9,726 bases of DNA from a virus (IMGVR_UViG_2731957841_000002:1-9726), one strand, 5' to 3'; shown: positions 1 to 9,726, numbered from the stretch's first letter. Translations and numbers: made by a program. Notes: generated by a model not told the origin, from the letters alone.

Positions 1-1155
1 ATGCTCACCGTTAAGCAGATTGAAGCAGCAAAGCCGAAAGAAAAACCATACCGCCTACTCGATGGTAATGGCCTGTACCTTTATGTCCCTGTGTCAGGGA
101 AAAAGGTATGGCAGCTTCGCTACAAGATTGACGGTAAGGAAAAAATACTGACCGTAGGAAAATATCCGCTAATGACTTTGCAGGAGGCAAGAGATAAAGC
201 ATGGACCGCGAGGAAAGACATCTCGGTTGGCATCGATCCGGTAAAAGCGAAAAAGGCTTCGTCTAACAACAATTCCTTTAGTGCGATTTACAAGGAATGG
301 TACGAGCACAAGAAGCAAGTCTGGTCAGTAGGCTATGCAAACGAACTTGCCAAAATGTTTGATGACGACATTTTACCCATCATCGGCGGTCTTGAGATTC
401 AGGATATTGAGCCGATGCAACTGTTGGAAGTAATCCGCAGATTTGAAGATCGCGGTGCAATGGAGCGAGCCAACAAAGCACGCAGAAGATGCGGCGAGGT
501 TTTCCGTTACGCTATTGTCACTGGTAGGGCTAAATATAACCCGGCACCTGACCTTGCTGACGCCATGAAGGGATACCGCAAGAAGAACTTCCCGTTTCTT
601 CCAGCAGACCAGATCCCGGCATTCAACAAAGCACTGGCAACATTTTCAGGAAGTATCGTATCGCTCATTGCGACCAAAGTTTTACGCTACACAGCCCTAA
701 GAACGAAAGAACTTCGCTCCATGCAATGGAAGAACGTCGATTTTGAAAACAGGATTATCACCATCGACGCCAGTGTGATGAAGGGACGCAAAATTCATGT
801 GGTCCCGATGTCAGACCAGGTGGTTGAACTTCTCACTACGCTAAGCTCAATCACCAAACCAGTCTCAGAGTTTGTTTTTTCCGGGCGCAACGATAAGAAG
901 AAGCCAATCTGCGAGAACGCGGTATTGCTTGTGATCAAACAAATCGGCTATGAAGGCCTGGAAAGCGGTCACGGATTCAGGCATGAATTCAGCACGATTA
1001 TGAACGAGCACGAATGGCCTGCTGACGCTATTGAAGTGCAGCTGGCACATGCCAACGGCGGATCTGTGCGCGGTATTTACAACCATGCTCAGTATCTCGA
1101 TAAGCGCAGAGAAATGATGCAGTGGTGGGCGGATTGGCTTGATGGGAAGGTGTGA
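1..1155 (+). CDS. intS: Tyrosine site-specific integrase, P4 family (IntS-like)
   Basis: 384-aa ORF. N-terminus MLTVKQIEAAKPKEKPYRLLDGNGLYLYV fits the P4-integrase arm-binding domain pattern. C-terminal catalytic region has GHGFRHEF (His/Arg) and RGIYNHAQY (candidate Tyr nucleophile). Symbol assigned from memory of E. coli IntS; not verified. Confidence 0.9.
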   Translation: MLTVKQIEAAKPKEKPYRLLDGNGLYLYVPVSGKKVWQLRYKIDGKEKILTVGKYPLMTLQEARDKAWTARKDISVGIDPVKAKKASSNNNSFSAIYKEWYEHKKQVWSVGYANELAKMFDDDILPIIGGLEIQDIEPMQLLEVIRRFEDRGAMERANKARRRCGEVFRYAIVTGRAKYNPAPDLADAMKGYRKKNFPFLPADQIPAFNKALATFSGSIVSLIATKVLRYTALRTKELRSMQWKNVDFENRIITIDASVMKGRKIHVVPMSDQVVELLTTLSSITKPVSEFVFSGRNDKKKPICENAVLLVIKQIGYEGLESGHGFRHEFSTIMNEHEWPADAIEVQLAHANGGSVRGIYNHAQYLDKRREMMQWWADWLDGKV

Positions 1156-1158
1156 GGC

Positions 1159-1218
1159 ATTAGCGCAAGACGAATCGACACCTTCGCCAGTTTTGAGTTT
1201 TTTTTGCGCTAATTTTTT
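1159..1218 (+). terminator. Candidate intrinsic terminator after integrase gene
   Basis: 10-bp inverted repeat ATTAGCGCAA (1159-1168) / TTGCGCTAAT (1204-1213) followed by a T6 run (1213-1218). The enclosed loop is long (35 nt), so the call is weak. Confidence 0.3.
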
Positions 1219-1252
1219 GCCACAATCATGCTCCAGGCAATGAAAGCAAGCT

Positions 1253-1275
1253 GATGGTAGGTTATGATTACCATC
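1253..1275. promoter_or_regulatory. Inverted repeat GATGGTA-N9-TACCATC upstream of acyltransferase gene (candidate operator or RNA hairpin)
   Basis: Perfect 7-bp arms at 1253-1259 and 1269-1275, about 33 bp upstream of the ATG at 1308, at the GC-content transition into the AT-rich cargo gene. Confidence 0.2.
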
Positions 1276-1307
1276 TAATATTTATTCTTAAATAAGATGA
1301 GTATAGC

Positions 1308-2402
1308 ATGACCCTAAATAATAAAAACCTTGACATTCAAGCGCTAAGGGCGGTAGCCATAATAATGGTTATTCTACAACATTATAGAAATAGATTACCT
1401 TCGCCAGATTGGTATTTGAGCAGTTTTAATTACGTTAATTATTGGGCTGGAGTTGATATATTTTTGGCTATATCTGGATATTTGATGGCTAAAAGCTTAA
1501 CTGGGGAAATAAAAAAAACCGGCAGAACAACTAAAACATTTTTATTATTTTTATCTAAAAGAATATTTAGGCTAGCCCCATGCTTACTTGTATGGGGCAC
1601 CATCTGTATAATAATCTCTTATTTTATGCAACCTTCTTGGGGTGTTTCACCTCTTAAATCATTCACTACGTTATATACATCCCTACTTGGTTATTCTAAT
1701 ATCCACTTCTATAGGTGCGCAGTAACAGCAAATGATTGTGACCAAATGAATGCGGTGACCTGGTCTCTATCTTTGGAATGGCAACTGTATGCTATAATTG
1801 CGGCAATCATGCTGCTCTTTAACAGGAAAAATCTGACGATTATTTTCATATTCATAGTAGCTATTGCATCTTTCCTGCCAGTAACTCAAATGTACTATCA
1901 ATCCATTGGTTGGTGGATTAGACCACAAGCATTCTTTCTGGGAGCAATTATATTCATAACTGGAAGCAAGTGTTATGTAAGCAATAAATGCACAAGACTA
2001 TTTTTTATTATAGTTTGCATTTTTGTTTTACTCGTTGCCCCTCAGCACTTTAACTATAGATTGACATTACCTGCGATTGGTTTTGCTGGTGCATTATTAT
2101 TTCTATGTTTTATTAGTGGTGGTGTGGTAGATAAAAAAGATAATCCAGCATATAAAATGCTGGACTGGATTGGGGATAGATCTTATAGCATTTATCTTTG
2201 CCATTTACCATTACTACATGTAACAAGGGAGGTTTTGAACAAACTCTCCCTTAATACCGTCATTTACGAAAACAAAGTTATATACTTCTTCGCTTTCATT
2301 CTTTTGCTAGTTGTCTTTTCTGATTTATCATATAGATATGTAGAAAAGAAATTTATAAGAACAGGGAGACTAATAATGAGTAAAAATATTTCACCACTAT
2401 AA
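1308..2402 (+). CDS. Integral-membrane acyltransferase, acyltransferase-3 family (Oac/OafA-like O-antigen acetyltransferase candidate)
   Basis: 364-aa ORF, very hydrophobic with multiple predicted TM segments. N-terminal motif LRAVAIIMVILQH matches the conserved R-x10-H region of acyltransferase-3 proteins. Strongly AT-rich relative to flanking genes. Sits in the integrase-proximal cargo slot. Confidence 0.8.
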   Translation: MTLNNKNLDIQALRAVAIIMVILQHYRNRLPSPDWYLSSFNYVNYWAGVDIFLAISGYLMAKSLTGEIKKTGRTTKTFLLFLSKRIFRLAPCLLVWGTICIIISYFMQPSWGVSPLKSFTTLYTSLLGYSNIHFYRCAVTANDCDQMNAVTWSLSLEWQLYAIIAAIMLLFNRKNLTIIFIFIVAIASFLPVTQMYYQSIGWWIRPQAFFLGAIIFITGSKCYVSNKCTRLFFIIVCIFVLLVAPQHFNYRLTLPAIGFAGALLFLCFISGGVVDKKDNPAYKMLDWIGDRSYSIYLCHLPLLHVTREVLNKLSLNTVIYENKVIYFFAFILLLVVFSDLSYRYVEKKFIRTGRLIMSKNISPL

Positions 2403-2576
2403 TTCATCAATATATTCAGGGGGCAAAAACCTACCCTCTGAATATGTATACCCAACACCAACAACGCTATTGTCGTCAAGCTTTATACAGAGATAATCAT
2501 CGTATTGTTTTCCATCGCCGTTCCATAATATAACGTTAATCACAACATCATTTTCTACCAATGCATATTTCATCAT
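2397..2576 (-). CDS. Small hypothetical protein (59 aa), translationally coupled to the upstream fibre gene
   Basis: Hand-translated: MMKYALVENDVVINVILWNGDGKQYDDYLCIKLDDNSVVGVGYTYSEGRFLPPEYIDEL. Its ATG (2576-2574) overlaps the fibre gene TGA (2575-2573) as ATGA. Below the length cut-off of the supplied ORF track. Its 3' end overlaps the convergent acyltransferase stop by 6 bp. Confidence 0.4.
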   Translation of the reverse strand: MMKYALVENDVVINVILWNGDGKQYDDYLCIKLDDNSVVGVGYTYSEGRFLPPEYIDEL

Positions 2577-3475
2577 GCATACTCCCAGATAAGAACAATA
2601 CCATTACCACCGGCGGCTCCGTTATATTGGGTGGCATTATTCACATATGCGTTAGCCCCACCGCCCCCAGCCCCGAAACCAGTCGGCAATACACCGATAC
2701 CCGCTGAGCCGTGTGGATTACCACCCACACCTAATGGACTATTACCTCCGCCACCAGAGATGATAGAGCTAGTCGATATAGCCATGCCAATAGTTGGATT
2801 CTCTCCAGAGAGATTTAAAATATTACCTCCGGATGCTATAGGAATTCCTGGTGAGTTCTGAATAATAGGAGGTACCCCATTTCCTGAACCACCACCAAAT
2901 CCACCGCCAGCGGTTATAGATCCGAAAGAAGATCCACCACCGTTTCCTCCATTACCGTTAACCCCACCAGCTCCACCAGCTCCAATGGTTACAGTATATG
3001 CTGAGTCTAAATTGGTGATACGGGATTTAGCGTAGGCGCCACCTCCCCCTCCACACCCAACTGCAACACTGGTAGAGTTAGTTGTACCAACCCCGCCCCC
3101 TCCTCCGCCTGCGCCTTGGACTTCAACAATAATGCTTTTCGTTCCTGGGGTTGGCGTATAAGTCCCGGATGTCGTTATTGTGCGAACACCAATAAGCCGT
3201 CCTGTTGCAGCCTGCTCTACCGCACTCGCTAATTGCGCAGAGAGCCCCGCAATATCACCATTATCTTTCACATCCTCACTGGTATTATCTGCGATAAACT
3301 GCCCCACAGCAGCCGCCATTGCCGTTCCTTGCCTCAGACCTTTGTTCACCTGAGCACTTGATGCCTTCCCCGATGTAAAGCCAGCAGATAGGACAGGTAA
3401 TGATTCCCAGTCTGTCTGAGTTGTTACGTTAGCACCAGAGCCAGTTGCAAATGGTTTAAATTCATTTTTAGCCAT
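2573..3475 (-). CDS. Glycine-rich phage tail-fibre-like protein
   Basis: Long GGxGG/GNGG tracts typical of phage fibre or collar proteins. N-terminus MAKNEFKPFATGSGANVTTQ. Start chosen at ATG 3475-3473, overlapping the upstream gene stop as TGATG. The ORF track's alternative start at 3493 adds 6 codons but has an SD only 1 nt from the ATG. Confidence 0.7.
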   Translation of the reverse strand: MAKNEFKPFATGSGANVTTQTDWESLPVLSAGFTSGKASSAQVNKGLRQGTAMAAAVGQFIADNTSEDVKDNGDIAGLSAQLASAVEQAATGRLIGVRTITTSGTYTPTPGTKSIIVEVQGAGGGGGGVGTTNSTSVAVGCGGGGGAYAKSRITNLDSAYTVTIGAGGAGGVNGNGGNGGGSSFGSITAGGGFGGGSGNGVPPIIQNSPGIPIASGGNILNLSGENPTIGMAISTSSIISGGGGNSPLGVGGNPHGSAGIGVLPTGFGAGGGGANAYVNNATQYNGAAGGNGIVLIWEYA

Positions 3476-4155
3476 CAGAGTAATTTCCCCCATGCTCCTA
3501 CATCAAAACCACTGATGAATTCGTTATCCATATCAAAACCAAAAAATTTTGAACCTTCCGATGGAGTTTCCACCGAAGGTGTTTCAATGCCACCCGCCCA
3601 CACACCGGCGGCTTTTACTGTGAGATACCCCTGTTTAATTGCCGCAATTAACTCACGCGATACATCTGAAATATCAGTATCAGGAAAGACCCAGACCGAT
3701 ATCGTCATGTCCTGGTTATCGACAATCTGCATTCGCAGCCCGGCTCCTGCTGTCGCCGTGTCAAGAATTGCCGGAAGCGAATCATTCCGTCCGTCCCAGT
3801 TATTAATCGCAATCTTCGCTTTAAGGATGACACGATAAGTTTCATCGCTGAGGTACATGTATCCGGAATCAGGATCGTATGGCCCCTGCCATACACCCTG
3901 ATCATATCCAAGCCCGTCGGTATCCCAGCTGAAATAGATACCTGAGATAGGCTGGCTGACAACACGGCTACGCCCGATCCACAATCCCAGAATGTCAAGT
4001 TGCACACCAACGGCAGAGTCAATATCAAATGCAGTAATCAGCCCTCTGGTGGCAGCCGCAACATCAATAAGCGGCCGGGTCATCAGATCAACATGCGCAA
4101 GAAATTTAGGTTTGGTGGCGTGGTAGTTCGTGATTAGTTCGGTGTATTTGCTCAT
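3475..4155 (-). CDS. Phage tail/baseplate-associated protein of unknown function (possibly DUF2612-type)
   Basis: 226-aa ORF in an operon with the fibre gene. ATGA overlap with the upstream 172-aa gene. Family assignment is from memory and tentative. Confidence 0.7.
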   Translation of the reverse strand: MSKYTELITNYHATKPKFLAHVDLMTRPLIDVAAATRGLITAFDIDSAVGVQLDILGLWIGRSRVVSQPISGIYFSWDTDGLGYDQGVWQGPYDPDSGYMYLSDETYRVILKAKIAINNWDGRNDSLPAILDTATAGAGLRMQIVDNQDMTISVWVFPDTDISDVSRELIAAIKQGYLTVKAAGVWAGGIETPSVETPSEGSKFFGFDMDNEFISGFDVGAWGKLL

Positions 4156-4670
4156 GACTCCACCGTTATAACGATATTTTCCGGGGTACAGGACGCAGAT
4201 TCGTTATATCTGATATCAATGTTTGATGACGACAAAGCCCCCGGGGATTTCCCAATCGTCAGTTCCTGAATATCGTAATAGCGTGCATTACCGGTTTTAG
4301 CGTTGGCATTATCCGGTTGTTTCTGGAACGCAACACTGCGTGCCGTGATGATGTCGCCGCTGACCTTGTTGCGGATCACGATAACGTTATTCCCCCATGT
4401 GGCAGAAGACTGGCTCTGTGCGTTATACGCCAGCGACAATTTTTTATTTGTCGGTGATGTCTTCAGAAGGTTAACGGTAATCGTCCCGCTTTTATCTGCA
4501 TGGAGACTGTGCATCACTTCGCCATCAGCACCGATGGTCATGGTGTTTTTAGGACCGCCCATCGCAACCACAATCCCCTCTTCAGAACTTGCAGAACCGT
4601 ACCCGAGGTCAATCGAACCGGTCGGCCCGGTCAGCGTCGCAGTGACATCCATAAAAGAATAGGTAGACAT
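4152..4670 (-). CDS. Phage tail-module protein, unknown function (172 aa)
   Basis: First gene of the leftward tail remnant. SD-like AAGGGGAAG upstream of the ATG at 4670. Coupled to the downstream gene. Confidence 0.7.
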   Translation of the reverse strand: MSTYSFMDVTATLTGPTGSIDLGYGSASSEEGIVVAMGGPKNTMTIGADGEVMHSLHADKSGTITVNLLKTSPTNKKLSLAYNAQSQSSATWGNNVIVIRNKVSGDIITARSVAFQKQPDNANAKTGNARYYDIQELTIGKSPGALSSSNIDIRYNESASCTPENIVITVES

Positions 4671-4680
4671 TCACTTCCCC

Positions 4681-4773
4681 TTAGCGAACAACGTTAATCT
4701 GTACGTCAGCGTAATGAACCGCGCCTGCAAGTTTTATTGCAGCCTGAATCACCGGAGCCTTAAGGGCGCACAT
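4681..4773 (-). pseudogene. Probable C-terminal remnant of a deleted late gene (30-codon ORF ending ...APVIQAAIKLAGAVHYADVQINVVR)
   Basis: Hand-translated frame reads like a genuine protein C-terminus and stops just before the RBS of the 172-aa gene. Overlaps the end of the truncated cro-like ORF in another frame. Confidence 0.3.
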
Positions 4774-4882
4774 AGATCCCCTTCACCTTGTCTGCGGTAG
4801 CTCCCTGTGTGCATCCAACTGCCTTAGCAAGTGTTGTTTGAGAGATATTCAGTGACTCTCGATATTTTCGTAGGTTGCTCAT
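4760..4882 (-). CDS. Cro-like HTH protein, apparently C-terminally truncated (40 aa)
   Basis: MSNLRKYRESLNISQTTLAKAVGCTQGATADKVKGIYVRP has an HTH (ISQTTLAKAVGC) and is divergent from cI, as cro is in lambda. GGAGGG lies upstream of the ATG. Shorter than typical Cro proteins (about 60-75 aa). The ORF track's 97-aa version runs upstream through the operator region. Confidence 0.5.
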   Translation of the reverse strand: MSNLRKYRESLNISQTTLAKAVGCTQGATADKVKGIYVRP

Positions 4883-4908
4883 ATGCCCTCCATAGTAACC
4901 ATGAAACA

Positions 4909-4937: not shown

Positions 4938-4993
4938 ACAAAAAATACATCTTGTGCATGGATGGTTTTAGTACAGAGCGTAATAATAAGGGT

Positions 4994-5653
4994 ATGAAAA
5001 TGAAATGGTATGAACTGGCTAGATCCAGAATGAAAGAGCTCGGCATAACTCAAGAGAAGTTAGCTGAAGAGCTTGGTATGACGCAGGGTGGAATTGGTCA
5101 CTGGTTGCGCGGATCTCGTCATCCATCTCTTGACGAGATTGGTGTGGTGTTTAAATACCTTGGTATTGATAACGTCTCATTCAACCACGACGGTACATTT
5201 TCACCTGTTGGCGAATACTCATCTGCCCCCGTTAAAAAACAATATGAGTACCCTGTTTTTTCTCATGTTCAGGCCGGGATGTTCTCGCCTGAGCTTAGAA
5301 CCTTTACCAAAGGTGATGCGGAGAGATGGGTCAGCACAACCAAAAAAGCCAGTGATTGTGCGTTTTGGCTTGAAGTTGAAGGTAATTCCATGACCGCGCC
5401 AACAGGATCCAAGCCAAGCTTTCCTGACGGGATGTTAATTCTCGTTGACCCTGATCAGGCTGTTGAGCCAGGTGATTTCTGCATAGCCAGACTTGGTGGT
5501 GACGAGTTTACCTTTAAGAAACTGATCAGGGATAGCGGTCAGGTGTTCCTCCAGCCACTAAACCCGCAATATCCAATGATTCCATGCAATGATAGCTGTT
5601 CCGTAGTAGGGAAAGTTATCGCCAGCCAGTGGCCTGAAGAGACATTTAGTTAA
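4994..5653 (+). CDS. cI: CI-type prophage repressor (HTH N-terminal domain plus S24 LexA-like autopeptidase C-terminal domain)
   Basis: C-terminal half nearly matches lambda cI as I recall it: [50 protein letters not shown] (Ser nucleophile), FTFKKL (Lys), plus an Ala-Gly cleavage site in QAGM. N-terminal HTH domain is unlike lambda. Start placed at ATG 4994 (AAGGG upstream) rather than the TTG at 4952 in the ORF track. Confidence 0.9.
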
Positions 5654-5684
5654 CAGCCTCACCACTCTAAAACACACAACAATA

Positions 5685-5713
5685 ACCCGACCTTAGCGTC
5701 GGGTTTTCTTTTT
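5685..5713 (+). terminator. Intrinsic terminator downstream of cI
   Basis: Stem ACCCGAC (5685-5691) / GTCGGGT (5698-5704), 6-nt loop, then TTTCTTTTT (5705-5713). Confidence 0.6.
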
Positions 5714-5778: not shown

Positions 5779-5807
5779 TTGACTCGATAAAGTACAAATC
5801 GTACTAT
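5779..5807 (+). promoter_or_regulatory. pL-like early-left promoter
   Basis: -35 TTGACT (5779-5784), 17-bp spacer, -10 TACTAT (5802-5807). The downstream transcript start region ATCAGCAGGACGCACTGACC matches the lambda pL transcript start as I recall it. Confidence 0.5.
5791..5805. promoter_or_regulatory. Candidate repressor operator (palindrome AGTAC-N5-GTACT) overlapping the pL -10
   Basis: Perfect 5-bp inverted arms. Related AGTAC/GTACT motifs recur in the cro-cI intergenic region (4921-4925, 4970-4974). Confidence 0.3.
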
Positions 5808-5846: not shown

Positions 5847-5877
5847 TGCTCTTAAAAATTAAGCCCTGAAGAAGGGC
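5847..5877 (+). promoter_or_regulatory. nutL-type antitermination site (boxA TGCTCTTAA plus boxB hairpin GCCCTGAAGAAGGGC)
   Basis: boxB (5863-5877) is identical to the lambda nutL boxB. boxA (5847-5855) differs from lambda CGCTCTTAA at its first base and resembles the rrn-type boxA TGCTCTT. Spacer is AAATTAA as in lambda. Confidence 0.7.
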
Positions 5878-6049
5878 AGCATTCAAAGCAGAAGGCTTTG
5901 GGGTGTGGTGAAGGGTTCATGGATGGGAATATGTCGCACGTAAAGCGGCGAGGCCTGCGGAACTATTGCCGAATTGAAGTCGGCCGAAGCAGGTCGAAAT
6001 GGGTCTCCCACCTACCACACCACCAAAGCTAACTGACAGGAGAATCCAG

Positions 6050-6253
6050 ATGGCAAAGCAATCAAAACCATCACCTACACCTGAACAGGTTCTAAAAGCA
6101 TTCACTGACGCAGCAATGCAGAAAAACACCGTGGAAGAGCTTAAACAGGCGTTCGCCAAAGCGTGGAAGATGCTCGAAGGAACACCGGAGCAGCACAAAG
6201 CGCAGGACGTTTACAACATCAGACGAGACGAATTAGAAGGAGCGGCTGCTTAA
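6050..6253 (+). CDS. Hypothetical small protein (67 aa) in the position lambda N would occupy; not N-like
   Basis: AGGAGA RBS and ATG context match the lambda N start region as I recall it, but the protein (MAKQSKPSPTPEQVLKAF...) has no arginine-rich motif. The ORF track's upstream extension from 5999 lacks an RBS. Confidence 0.6.
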   Translation: MAKQSKPSPTPEQVLKAFTDAAMQKNTVEELKQAFAKAWKMLEGTPEQHKAQDVYNIRRDELEGAAA

Positions 6254-6636
6254 TGGCACATTCGATTACTGTAAGACTAAACAAACCCGCAAGAGAGTTT
6301 CAGGCCGGGGAAAATATCGGATTCAACATCCGTGCTGGCGTTCAGTATTACGATCGCCAGACAAAAAAGAAAGAATGGACAAACTACAGCGCCGTTGTAT
6401 TTGCCAAGCCAGGAGCGCAAGCGGATTACTACCGTAGTGTTCTTGTTGAAGGTGGCATTGTGGAAATTACCGGAGAAAACATCAGGGTTGATGTTTATCA
6501 GGGGCAAAATGGTCAATCAATCACTCTTGAATTACTGAATGCAAAGATTGGATTTGCAACTTCAGGAAACAGCCAACAGCAGCAAAGTAGCAATCATCAA
6601 AATCATCCTGAATACGACGATTCAATTCCCTTCTAA
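6253..6636 (+). CDS. SSB-like single-stranded DNA-binding protein (short form, 127 aa) with conserved acidic C-terminal tip
   Basis: C-terminus ...PEYDDSIPF resembles the E. coli SSB tip DFDDDIPF, preceded by a Q-rich linker. The N-terminal ~100 aa is compatible with an OB fold (KEWTNYSAVVFAK, VEGGIVEITGE). TAATG stop/start overlap with the upstream gene. Confidence 0.7.
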   Translation: MAHSITVRLNKPAREFQAGENIGFNIRAGVQYYDRQTKKKEWTNYSAVVFAKPGAQADYYRSVLVEGGIVEITGENIRVDVYQGQNGQSITLELLNAKIGFATSGNSQQQQSSNHQNHPEYDDSIPF

Positions 6637-6659
6637 AGTAGCAAAATAAGGATTCCATT

Positions 6660-6953
6660 ATGCCAGCGCCTCTGTATGGTGCGGATGACCCGCGCCGCTG
6701 TTCCGGCAATTCCGTATCGGAGGTGCTGGATAAATTCAGAAAAAACTACGACCTGATAATGTCGCTACCGCAGGAAACGAAAGAGGAAAAGGAATTTCGT
6801 CATTGTATATGGCTTGCAGAGAAAGAAGAGCGCGAGCGAATTTACCAGACATCAATCCGACCATTCCGCAAAGCCACATATACCCACTTCCCTGAAATTG
6901 ACCCGCGCCTGCGTAATTACCGCTCACGCTATGGCGCTATCAGTAATGACTGA
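6660..6953 (+). CDS. Hypothetical protein (97 aa)
   Basis: AAGGA RBS 7 nt upstream of the ATG. Operon context. No recognisable domain. Confidence 0.6.
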   Translation: MPAPLYGADDPRRCSGNSVSEVLDKFRKNYDLIMSLPQETKEEKEFRHCIWLAEKEERERIYQTSIRPFRKATYTHFPEIDPRLRNYRSRYGAISND

Positions 6954-6963
6954 GGAATTAACA

Positions 6964-7254
6964 ATGAAAACAATGAAGCTAAACATCGACCTCGGAAAAT
7001 ACGTTATTACCGGAACCAAACACGACCTGATTCTTAGTGAAATAGGAATTATCAAAGAAGGTGAGAATGCAGGGAAAGAAACACTAAGTCGTATCGGTTA
7101 TTACAGCAAGTTTGAGCATCTGGTTAAAGAGTTATGCAACCGTGAAATTCTGTTATCTCAGGCGCAGACGTTACAGGATATTCAGCAGCATATCGAGACT
7201 TTATGTGTGTCACTTAGCATGGCTATTGACCAGTTCGTGGAGAGTAAATCATGA
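6964..7254 (+). CDS. Hypothetical protein (96 aa)
   Basis: GAGGAA RBS upstream of ATG 6964. The ORF track's longer version from 6814 overlaps the preceding gene and lacks an RBS. Confidence 0.6.
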
Positions 7255-7415
7255 GAGGACTTGCATACAATCCCGGCATTCTTCCGGCAGAAATGATTAT
7301 TCGCCAACGCGTAAAGCCAATGCCATCGAGAGAGGAATTGCTTAAGAGAAATTCTTTTCCGTCAGTAAATCAAAACAAATATCTGAATGCGATGTTGCGG
7401 AGTGGGAAAAAATGA
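7251..7415 (+). CDS. Hypothetical small basic protein (54 aa), translationally coupled at both ends
   Basis: Hand-translated: [58 protein letters not shown] overlap with the upstream gene stop and ATGA overlap with the downstream gene start. Below the ORF-track length cut-off. Confidence 0.35.
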
Positions 7416-7963
7416 AACAAATGTCACTAATTGAGATGGATGGTTTTCTGAAAGATAAATGCATCCCAAGTGATTTAAAGGTTAACGAAACAAACGCTGA
7501 ATATCTGGTGCGTAAATTTGCTGAAGCGGAGGCCAAGATTTCGGCTCTGTCCGAAGACCAGCAGAGAGCGATTGAGTCAATTAAGCAGGCTGATGCAGCT
7601 GTTAAGTTGGCACACGAGAAGTTTTCGGCGCTTGCGGCGGAGAATGCGGTAATGCTCGAAACTATTGAAGCCGTTCGCAGTGTTGCGGATAACTCCAGTG
7701 GAATTGCCGGATGGCATTTGAATGGCGATATCGCCACATGGGAAGAGATTCTTCCTGAAATTAACGATATCGAAACCCCAGCCACCGATGCTTTCCTGGC
7801 TGAAGTACGGGCGCAGGGGGTAGAGATGTACGCAGATAACCTCGACAACGTAGCAGACGACGCAGAACGAGGTGGTTTTGATTATGCCGTTAAGTTTCTA
7901 CGCAGTGAAGCGTCTAGTGTACGTTTGTTCGCCGACCAGCTTCGCAAAGGAGGCAACCAGTGA
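7412..7963 (+). CDS. Hypothetical acidic protein (183 aa)
   Basis: Operon context. GTGA overlap with the downstream gene. The antisense 168-aa ORF over the same region is low-complexity and judged spurious. Confidence 0.65.
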
Positions 7964-8484: not shown

Positions 8485-8686
8485 TATGAGCAGGAATACG
8501 GGTTTGTAAAAGATAACGCTTGTGAAAATGCTGAATTTCGCGTCGTCTTCACAGCGATGCCAGAGTCTGTAGTGTCAGATGATGACCGTACTCAAACATC
8601 GGGTTGAGTATTATCTTACTGTTTCTTTACATAAACATTGCTGATACCGTTTAGCTGAAACGACATACATTGCAAGGAGTTTATAA

Positions 8687-8968
8687 ATGAGTATCAATGA
8701 GTTAGAGTCTGAGCAAAAAGATTGGGCGTTATCAATGTTGTGCAGATCCGGTGTCTTGTCTCCATGCAGACATCACGAAGGTGTTTATGTAGATGAAGGT
8801 ATAGATATAGAGTCGGCATACAAATATTCCATGAAGGTTTATAAGTCTAATGAAGACAAATCCCCATTCTGCAATGTGCGAGAAATGACTGATACCGTGC
8901 AAAATTATTATCACGAGTACGGTGGAAACGATACTTGCCCTCTCTGTACAAAACATATAGATGATTAA
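8687..8968 (+). CDS. Hypothetical Cys-containing small protein (93 aa), AT-rich
   Basis: AAGGAG RBS 8 nt upstream. Five Cys including a CPLC pair. Preceded by a 200-bp intergenic region and followed by tandem terminators, a moron-like arrangement. Confidence 0.6.
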   Translation: MSINELESEQKDWALSMLCRSGVLSPCRHHEGVYVDEGIDIESAYKYSMKVYKSNEDKSPFCNVREMTDTVQNYYHEYGGNDTCPLCTKHIDD

Positions 8969-8986
8969 ACCAAATATTACATAACA

Positions 8987-9015
8987 ATCCTCGCACTCGC
9001 GGGGATTTCTTTTAT
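8987..9015 (+). terminator. Intrinsic terminator (first of tandem pair)
   Basis: Stem ATCCTCGC / GCGGGGAT (one G-U wobble), 4-nt loop ACTC, followed by TTCTTTTAT. Confidence 0.5.
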
Positions 9016-9018
9016 CTG

Positions 9019-9044
9019 AACTCGCTACGGCGAGTTTTGTTTTA
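9019..9044 (+). terminator. Intrinsic terminator (second of tandem pair)
   Basis: Stem ACTCGC (9020-9025) / GCGAGT (9030-9035), loop TACG, followed by TTTGTTTTA. Confidence 0.55.
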
Positions 9045-9056
9045 TGGAGACAAGAA

Positions 9057-9401
9057 ATGTCAGATTTGGCTATGAAGGTTTTGAAATGGCAATCGACTAG
9101 CGATGTCAGTATCAGTAGCGCAACTCTTGCCTCAATCGCATGTGGACTGAAAAAGAATATCTATGGTCATCACTTCGGCGCTCCCCATGACGCAGCAGAC
9201 TTTCGGCGATGCGTTGCACTTGTTGAGCAGATTCCAGAAATCAGAGATTCATTCAACAAGGTTGCAAAGCGCGTTCCGGCATTCAAAGGAATCCTCAACG
9301 AATGGGATTCCCTCGTTGCTCTGTTGAAGTCTGAAATGAAGATACACGGAAACAAAGCACCAGAGACTTACAGAAGAATCAGCGAGCTACGCAAGGACTA
9401 A
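9057..9401 (+). CDS. Hypothetical protein (114 aa)
   Basis: GGAGA RBS upstream. Lies between the terminator pair and torI. A short hairpin (GCCTCA...TGAGGC, 9407-9425) follows it. Confidence 0.6.
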   Translation: MSDLAMKVLKWQSTSDVSISSATLASIACGLKKNIYGHHFGAPHDAADFRRCVALVEQIPEIRDSFNKVAKRVPAFKGILNEWDSLVALLKSEMKIHGNKAPETYRRISELRKD

Positions 9402-9525
9402 CCACCGCCTCACACTCGATGAGGCCTGTTCATTTCTCAAGATATCCAGACCTACCATTGCTGCATCAATGCGGCTTTTTATTGCCTGATTTGCAGGTTC
9501 AATTCCATATTCGGAGATAGCACTC

Positions 9526-9726
9526 ATGCAACACGAACTACAACCTGATTCACTGGTTGATTTGAAATTCATCATGGCTGATACTGGCTTCGGTAAGACC
9601 TTCATCTATGACCGGATTAAGTCCGGCGACCTGCCTAAAGCCAAAGTTATCCACGGACGAGCAAGATGGTTATATCGTGACCATTGTGAATTCAAAAATA
9701 AGCTCTTAAGCCGCGCCAATGGGTAA
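9526..9726 (+). CDS. torI: Excisionase / recombination directionality factor, TorI-like
   Basis: 66-aa protein MQHELQPDSLVDLKFIMADTGFGKTFIYDRIKSGDLPKAKVIHGRARWLYRDHCEFKNKLLSRANG matches TorI of E. coli KplE1 as I recall it. GGAGA RBS upstream. The window ends at its stop codon. Confidence 0.9.
   Translation: MQHELQPDSLVDLKFIMADTGFGKTFIYDRIKSGDLPKAKVIHGRARWLYRDHCEFKNKLLSRANG

Follow-up and report, generated by a model that had tools for sequence, protein, structure and literature searches.

The DNA analysed here, referred to as the window, is a viral stretch of 9726 nt that runs from the start codon of intS (position 1) to the stop codon of torI (position 9726). Up to the proximal part of its early-left operon it carries the following features.

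1–1155: intS, tyrosine integrase
next after intS: acyltransferase gene
2573–4670, minus strand: three tail/baseplate gene remnants (KPP10_Orf10, DUF2612 and glycine-rich domains)
4760–4884, minus strand: truncated cro-like HTH ORF that abuts the baseplate/tail-fibre remnants
4958–5653, plus strand: gene for a cI-type repressor (HTH and S24 peptidase; Pfam Peptidase_S24 2e-28, HTH_3 8e-11)
5684–5705, plus strand: hairpin terminator 3' of the repressor gene (−12.4 kcal/mol, z = −4.4)
5779–5807, plus strand: pL-like promoter (TTGACT, 17-nt spacer, TACTAT; consensus scan) just 5' of a lambda-identical pL leader
5847–5877, plus strand: lambda-type nutL with boxA TGCTCTTAA (5847–5855) and boxB GCCCTGAAGAAGGGC (5863–5877)
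6050–6253, plus strand: deletion scar, an N'-'erf fusion ORF (blastn against the relative L128; PHROG match to the Erf C-terminus)

Judged by this gene content, the window is a 9.7-kb decayed prophage in which the repressor gene, pL, nutL and the distal operon have survived and N has been lost. The distal early-left operon reads erf remnant, ssb, abc2, DUF2737, two ea22-like genes, ea8.5, ORF114 and torI, and in related E. coli genomes torI is directly followed by dsdC, as in the cryptic prophage KplE1/CPS-53 of strain K-12. The whole window is absent from every complete E. coli genome in our collection (best coverage 47%), and strain PI24 carries a prophage of 42 kb that matches the left end of the window perfectly (1–4293, 100%) and the right end at 99.1%, which identifies the window as a heavily deleted member of the KplE1 family. 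The closest complete genome is PI24-like (NZ_CP074012). The entire pR operon, the replication and lysis genes and most structural genes are deleted from it. The immunity region of the PI24 prophage differs from that of the window, whose immunity/pL region instead matches prophages of the attLambda type, e.g. in strain Br_54_kylling. Since ends and immunity/pL region thus have different relatives, the remnant is itself a mosaic. The repressor gene is apparently intact, and its region shares 99.4% identity with the region of a 'LexA family protein' in L128. The hairpin behind it is flanked by U/A tracts on both sides and is therefore terminator-like on both strands.

The pL leader is essentially identical to that of lambda, with the lambda-type sequence retained to about position 5913. 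The boxB matches the nutL annotated in the lambda genome (NC_001416), in which our scan recovered the same hairpin. A first-pass annotation of this DNA had pointed to an upstream nutL in an operon without N, and both observations hold: boxA and boxB can be read directly in the sequence, and tblastn with the N protein of a relative found no N gene in the window. The deletion could be mapped: it fuses the N start codon in frame with the ~67 codons at the 3' end of erf. In blastn against L128, window 6005–6053 corresponds to the 49 nt up to the N start, and 6053–7649 aligns within erf; the remnant has lost N, tL1 and all else of the proximal pL operon down to mid-erf. Just upstream of the scar, 91 nt (5914–6004) have no counterpart in L128, which has 187 nt there. 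In the intact relative Br_54_kylling, the repressor, pL and nutL agree with the window at 99.4% and a lambda-type N gene lies just after nutL. The torI-bearing prophage of PI24 also encodes an N-like protein (phrog_271), and its pL operon contains at least six plus-strand terminator-like hairpins before torI. Directly 3' of this N-like gene lies a gene for a Nun-like transcription termination factor (L001 4698–5036; phrog_5632, 2e-69). Because the N gene is absent, N/nut antitermination would be non-functional in the remnant unless another prophage supplies N in trans.

The distal end of the operon is laid out as follows.

8687–8968, plus strand: ea8.5 (93 of 93 residues identical to lambda Ea8.5; Pfam Lambda_ea8_5 1e-48)
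8981–9050, plus strand: conserved lambdoid linker block comprising T1, T2 and a shared Shine-Dalgarno sequence (BLAST limits, also against L128)
8986–9016, plus strand: T1, a 9-bp hairpin (8986–9007) with the U-tract TTTCTTTTATCT (fold, annotation homology)
9018–9043, plus strand: T2, an 8-bp hairpin (9018–9037) with the U-tract TTTTGTTTTAT (fold, homology to lambda)
9044–9047, plus strand: GGAG Shine-Dalgarno sequence of ORF114, directly 3' of the T2 U-tract and the junction for differing downstream genes
9057–9401, plus strand: ORF114 (95% identity to phage 434 ORF114; phrog_1229)
9407–9425, plus strand: hairpin A, without a usable U-tract (conserved in 434, HK022 and K-12 KplE1; terminator score strongly negative)
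9460–9483, plus strand: t'I homologue, GCTGCA/TCAA/TGCGGC followed by TTTTTATT (−8.1 kcal/mol, z = −1.6)
9482–9494, plus strand: TTGC-N5-TTGC, remnant of the CII site of the pI promoter (alignment; the CII site is annotated in OL657226)
9526–9726, plus strand: torI, encoding the excisionase (recombination directionality factor), the last prophage gene (annotated in the best E. coli matches and in K-12)

The 88-nt gap between ea8.5 and ORF114 (8969–9056) is filled by two co-directional GC-rich hairpins. T1 consists of AATCCTCGC/ACTC/GCGGGGATT, i.e. 9 bp with a 4-nt loop, followed by TCTTTTATCT. T2 consists of GAACTCGC/TACG/GCGAGTTT, with 8 bp and a 4-nt loop, followed by TGTTTTATGG. The earlier claim of two consecutive stem-loop/T-tract terminators between a Cys-rich gene and a 114-aa ORF is thus borne out for both hairpins, and the fold energies proposed as a check agree with it: folded alone, T1 reached −13.1 kcal/mol (z = −6.1) and T2 −11.9 kcal/mol (z = −5.2), and none of 200 shuffles was as stable in either case. 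In the 101-nt intergenic RNA (z = −3.6) the two hairpins fold independently. A competing, attenuator-like T1/T2 fold was considered as well and is ruled out by the MFE and centroid structures, both of which show independent hairpins. The U-tracts lie on the transcribed strand and contain one interruption each, a C in T1 (TTTCTTTTAT) and a G in T2 (TTTTGTTTTAT); termination could therefore be only moderately efficient, with appreciable leak-through. On the opposite strand the sequence has no T-tract after either stem, which restricts the action of T1/T2 to the direction of the early-left operon. A search of the whole window against Rfam gave no match at the gathering score, and the sub-threshold matches within 8600–9726 were due to chance.

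We ranked the hairpins by a rough score of the d'Aubenton-Carafa type, which was combined with modern energy parameters and serves for ranking only: T1 received +12.7, T2 +15.7, the t'I homologue of the window +4.1, hairpin A −53, lambda tL3 +8.3 and lambda t'I +32. The scores of T1 and T2 are above zero and comparable to that of tL3. When the same simple scan was applied to the pL strand of lambda, it recovered T1 and T2 together with hairpins at the positions of tL3 and the tL2 cluster and at the site that aligns with t'I of 434; these names are our assignment, the lambda records carrying no such annotation.

Terminator-like patterns are not rare in a window of this size. We found 18 where shuffled sequences gave 8.0 ± 3.4, an approximately twofold enrichment, and some eight such patterns are expected by chance, which is the only point in favour of T1 and T2 being inverted repeats without function. 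The case against chance consequently rests on the paired sites and on their conservation rather than on the pattern. T1 and T2 are two strong sites 10 nt apart within one 88-nt gap, intergenic and on the same strand, their z-scores of −6.1 and −5.2 were matched by none of the shuffles, and they are conserved in hundreds of phages with pairing maintained. Chance is thereby effectively refuted, and its probability is negligible.

A scan of IMG/VR with the 16-nt linker that separates T1 from T2 yielded about 97 true homologues. Over 37 distinct sequences, pairing is preserved in 91.7% of stem cells, as compared to 37–55% when the partners are slid by 1–3 columns. One stem position of T2 is U-A in 42 copies, U-G in 39 and C-G in one divergent copy, and disrupted T2 variants are rare singletons. 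T1 occurs in several forms. Besides the major AATCCTCGC/GCGGGGATT stem there are at least three others, the 434-type ATCCTCG/CGAGGAT, CATCCCCGC/GCGGGGAT and an unrelated hairpin GAACCCGC/GCGGGTT, all of which are stable (−9 to −15 kcal/mol) and precede the same TTTCTTTTATCT tract. Two-sided covariation is confined to 3 pairs, a number that 64 of 500 shuffles also reach. This signal is weak because the copies are on average 91% identical, and the argument for structure therefore relies on retained pairing and hairpin replacement. Taken together, the canonical-looking T1 and T2 are almost certainly genuine intrinsic terminators. In many IMG/VR loci (L008–L127) the TAA stop codon of the upstream gene is separated from the T1 stem by only 1–3 nt (GAATAACAATCC). 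In such loci T1 could be masked by a ribosome that is just terminating, so that T2 would do the effective work, which may be why the terminators come in tandem. In the window, 17 nt separate the ea8.5 stop codon from T1, so such masking would not apply here.

The hairpins belong to a block that is well known from other phages. Over its 70 nt, the linker block (8981–9050) is 93–100% identical to lambda, 434, HK022, 933W, Sf6 and P22-like Salmonella phages. BLAST with the gap matched 314 phage records, including lambda, 434, HK022, 933W, VT2-Sakai, Sf6, mEp phages, BTP1 and ES18; most matches covered query 13–82, i.e. window 8981–9050, and lambda was 96% identical over 82 nt. Of 5426 complete E. 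coli genomes, 2462 (nearly half) contain the block as well. The homologue of T1 is annotated as 'tL4 terminator' in the GenBank entries of 434 (M60848) and HK022 (X51962), annotations that may themselves be sequence-based. T1 aligns with tL4 of 434 and HK022 without gaps and base for base except for loop and wobble changes; in these phages and in lambda, T2 follows at the same 10-nt distance, the U-tracts are the same, and the pair has the same place in the pL operon, upstream of orf55/ORF114, t'I and the excisionase gene. Lambda carries T1 (lambda 29335–29356) and T2 (lambda 29305–29324) between ea8.5 and orf55. The order in the window (ea22-like, ea8.5, T1, T2, ORF114, t'I homologue, torI) corresponds to the distal pL position expected of tL4. 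Unlike these phages, the window has no orf55, so that T2 abuts ORF114, its excisionase is TorI instead of a lambda-type Xis, its integrase gene is at the opposite end of the prophage and N is lost. Homology, annotation and cassette order together place T1/T2 in the known tL4 region of lambdoid phages, and by these comparisons the hairpins are the already annotated tL4 pair.

The same logic applies to the other terminators of the lambda pL operon (tL1, the tL2 cluster, tL3 and t'I), which are likewise intrinsic and overridden by nut-dependent processive antitermination. For tL3 and t'I there is published experimental support, with PMID 6305007 cited in record OL657226, whereas our searches of the literature returned no experimental termination results for tL4, T1 or T2, and their matches for tL3 were papers on plasmid construction. 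In the literature searched, both hairpins are mentioned solely in an in-silico table (Table 4) of Bloch et al. 2014 (PMC4195576), in which ARNold predicts both lambda hairpins as t3 and t4. T1 is the homologue of lambda t3 and T2 that of lambda t4.

A five-way alignment places the terminators in their cassette context:

lambda: ea8.5 – T1 T2 – orf55 – hairpin (t'I) – pI/xis
434 and HK022: X – T1 T2 – orf55 – hairpin – ORF114 – hairpin A – t'I – pI/xis
window: ea8.5 – T1 T2 – ORF114 – hairpin A – t'I homologue – torI
K-12 KplE1: yfdT/ypdJ – hairpin A – decayed t'I – torI

ORF114 has no Pfam family in our searches. It is widespread, always flanked by terminators and always close in front of the excisionase gene, regardless of the type of the latter. 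Of the structures behind it, hairpin A is probably not a terminator. t'I is annotated in M60848 and OL657226, and its homologue aligns at 9460–9483 of the window, where a C-to-T change that results in a G-U pair has weakened it slightly. In K-12 (L007 10190–10270) hairpin A is intact and the t'I stem has decayed (GCCGTCATAGAGCGTA). The adjacent CII site reads TTGC-N6-TTGC in lambda, 434 and HK022, and homology to these phages ends inside the TTGC-N5-TTGC of the window. With a spacer shorter by one base, and in a remnant that lacks cII, this site (9482–9494) is probably a fossil. Its counterpart in K-12 KplE1 is TTAC-N5-TTGC.

Homology to various phages begins 5 nt before T1 and ends right after the GGAG(A) 3' of T2, and the block also forms a mosaic joint. 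Upstream of it we counted 38 different contexts, and no fewer than six different genes follow GGAG. Mini-ORFs that were called from an ATG inside TTTTATGGAG downstream of T2 are spurious and were usable as context labels only. Among IMG/VR loci whose downstream sequence is long enough, about 26 have a lambda-type xis within 1.5 kb behind the block and about 17 a torI-type gene. Preceding both types, it forms a module that is independent of the recombination module. It is equally found in N phages, in P22-like phages, which use P22-type gp24, and in HK022, which uses put RNA. Occurrence in phages with differing systems makes the block independent of any one of them and fits generic terminators that are overridden by any processive antitermination. 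The ea8.5–tL4–(orf55)–ORF114–t'I module is thus a general excisionase-proximal feature of the pL operons of hundreds of lambdoid phages. This qualifies the initial interpretation of the tandem terminators as a gate on the excisionase: they do lie in the pL operon upstream of ORF114 and torI, but they are not a device specific to KplE1.

The sharp borders raise the alternative that the block is kept mainly as a recombination joint for the exchange of lambdoid cassettes, with termination as a secondary function. With many phages, homology is limited to exactly 8981 and 9050, 38 upstream contexts and at least six genes right after GGAG have been combined with it, and the absence of orf55 from the window maps to a repeated TTTTAT(T)GGAGA that is found 3' of both T2 and the orf55 hairpin in 434 and HK022. 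The latter suggests that orf55 was lost by deletion or cassette exchange through recombination between terminator–Shine-Dalgarno linkers. The stretches compared were window 9040–9056 and positions 350–370 and 540–566 of the 434 locus (L003), and the orf55-less junction recurs in 13 IMG/VR loci. A mere linker, however, would require neither stem pairing nor the replacement of T1 by other hairpins before the same U-tract. Moreover, the ea8.5, orf55 and ORF114 cassettes all end in a hairpin and a T-tract, which points to selection for termination. We therefore regard a predominant role as a joint as rather improbable, although it is compatible with the main explanation, that of an overridable terminator pair.

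Alternatively, T1/T2 could mark the end of an autonomous, moron-like ea8.5 cassette with a promoter of its own, or the hairpins could stabilise the 3' end of the ea8.5 mRNA, and neither version would make them checkpoints within the operon. ea8.5 is preceded by a 200-nt non-coding gap (8485–8686) with three 8/12 promoter-like sites, and lambda ea8.5 mRNA levels differ from those of the upstream genes (PMC4195576). Yet the gap contains no plus-strand promoter of 9/12, and the same block is found 3' of many unrelated genes and is thus not tied to ea8.5. Both versions of this explanation are very improbable.

We now return to the tL4 pair as terminators and to their consequences for torI. Between pL and T1 there is no other terminator-like site on the plus strand, which makes T1 and T2 the first intrinsic terminators on that strand. 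With N lost, pL transcripts should stop there. The start of ORF114 is 19 nt from T2, too close for a promoter in between, so the gene can be expressed only by read-through. For torI, a consensus scan between T2 and the gene found no sigma-70-like promoter of at least 9/12. The first-pass annotation had recommended a promoter search in 9402–9525, as a strong promoter immediately upstream of torI would make a gate irrelevant; our scan found no strong torI promoter in this stretch, and the best match is 8/12 and badly placed.

The terminators could nevertheless be irrelevant to torI if the gene were served by a weak promoter of its own within 9402–9525, or if Rho stopped transcripts of the N-less operon further upstream. 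The best candidate for the former is the promoter-like TTGCCT-18-CATATT (8/12) at 9482–9511. Its transcripts would start at or after the torI Shine-Dalgarno sequence (GGAG 9513–9516), yielding an almost leaderless mRNA that lacks this sequence, and no site reaches 9/12. The t'I homologue (9460–9483) lies upstream of this site and cannot block it, yet nothing suggests that the site is active. An independent torI promoter was accordingly dismissed on the basis of its 8/12 match and its placement relative to the Shine-Dalgarno sequence. As to the latter, untranslated stretches of the N-less operon could load Rho, which could act in the ~240-nt leader or in the 200-nt untranslated gap 8485–8686 and would render T1/T2 redundant. 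K-12 KplE1 lacks T1/T2, and its excision is still reported to be repressed by Rho. We consider it unlikely overall that T1/T2 has no bearing on torI.

Our preferred explanation is that T1/T2 is the tL4 pair of tandem Rho-independent terminators that is normally overridden by antitermination, and that an N-less remnant is left with silent ORF114 and torI; we assign it a probability of roughly 0.7. In a working phage, unmodified polymerase would stop at T1/T2, and polymerase that started at pL and was modified at nutL by N or an equivalent would read through. As only modified polymerase passes, ORF114 and the excisionase would be made only after the antiterminator has accumulated. In the remnant, inactivation of the repressor would lead to transcription from pL through erf'-ssb-abc2-ea22-ea8.5 that ends at T1/T2; behind these the t'I homologue would be a third barrier, though a weaker one. 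Expression of ORF114 and torI would then depend on leak-through or on N provided in trans by another lambda-type prophage. Efficient termination in vivo, activity of pL upon derepression and a limit on excision are what we infer from the DNA for this scheme. The resulting lock is a reasonable expectation, but it would be a by-product of N loss in a decaying prophage, neither designed nor a new regulatory device.

Regulation of excision by termination has precedents. According to papers that cite Menouni et al. 2013 (PNAS 110:14414), Rho represses excision of KplE1 (CPS-53) in E. coli K-12 and bicyclomycin raises the copy number of this prophage. The prophage family and the target, torI, are the same, and so is the principle that the prophage is maintained by termination ahead of its excisionase gene; termination is factor-dependent there and intrinsic here, and the DNA is different. 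K-12 KplE1 has yfdP-yfdT/ypdJ upstream of torI, lacks T1, T2 and ORF114, and shares with the window only the ~125-nt torI leader (9402–9525). The initial distinction between Rho-dependent control in KplE1 and intrinsic terminators in the window was therefore justified, but the two do not concern the same DNA. Since K-12 KplE1 keeps torI silent without T1/T2, silencing in this prophage family does not depend on these terminators. The comparison thus avoids a false link to the Rho-dependent control of K-12 KplE1. In Tn916 (PMC11658703) and in conjugation operons (PMC8955417), multiple terminators hold back spurious or premature expression of the genes for excision or transfer, and they are overcome by an antiterminator dedicated to this purpose. 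The elements and sequences are unrelated to ours and the likeness is one of concept only.

A stronger version of the preferred explanation would hold that in N-less remnants the tL4 pair and the t'I homologue form a decisive Rho-independent lock that uncouples torI from SOS-induced pL transcription and has been selected by the host. We regard this as doubtful. If true, E. coli would have a second route, parallel to the Rho-dependent one of K-12, by which it 'grounds' argW prophages, and the intact T1/T2 beside torI in decayed prophages would have been kept by selection at the level of the host. For the tL4 explanation itself, the immediate benefit is a correct annotation, beyond which it matters little: the Cys-rich gene is ea8.5, the 114-aa ORF is ORF114 of 434/HK022, and the hairpins are the tL4 pair and a t'I homologue. 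Still, a co-resident lambda-type phage could lift the barrier by supplying N in trans and thereby turn on torI, which would be a simple way in which a superinfecting phage might trigger the excision of such remnants.
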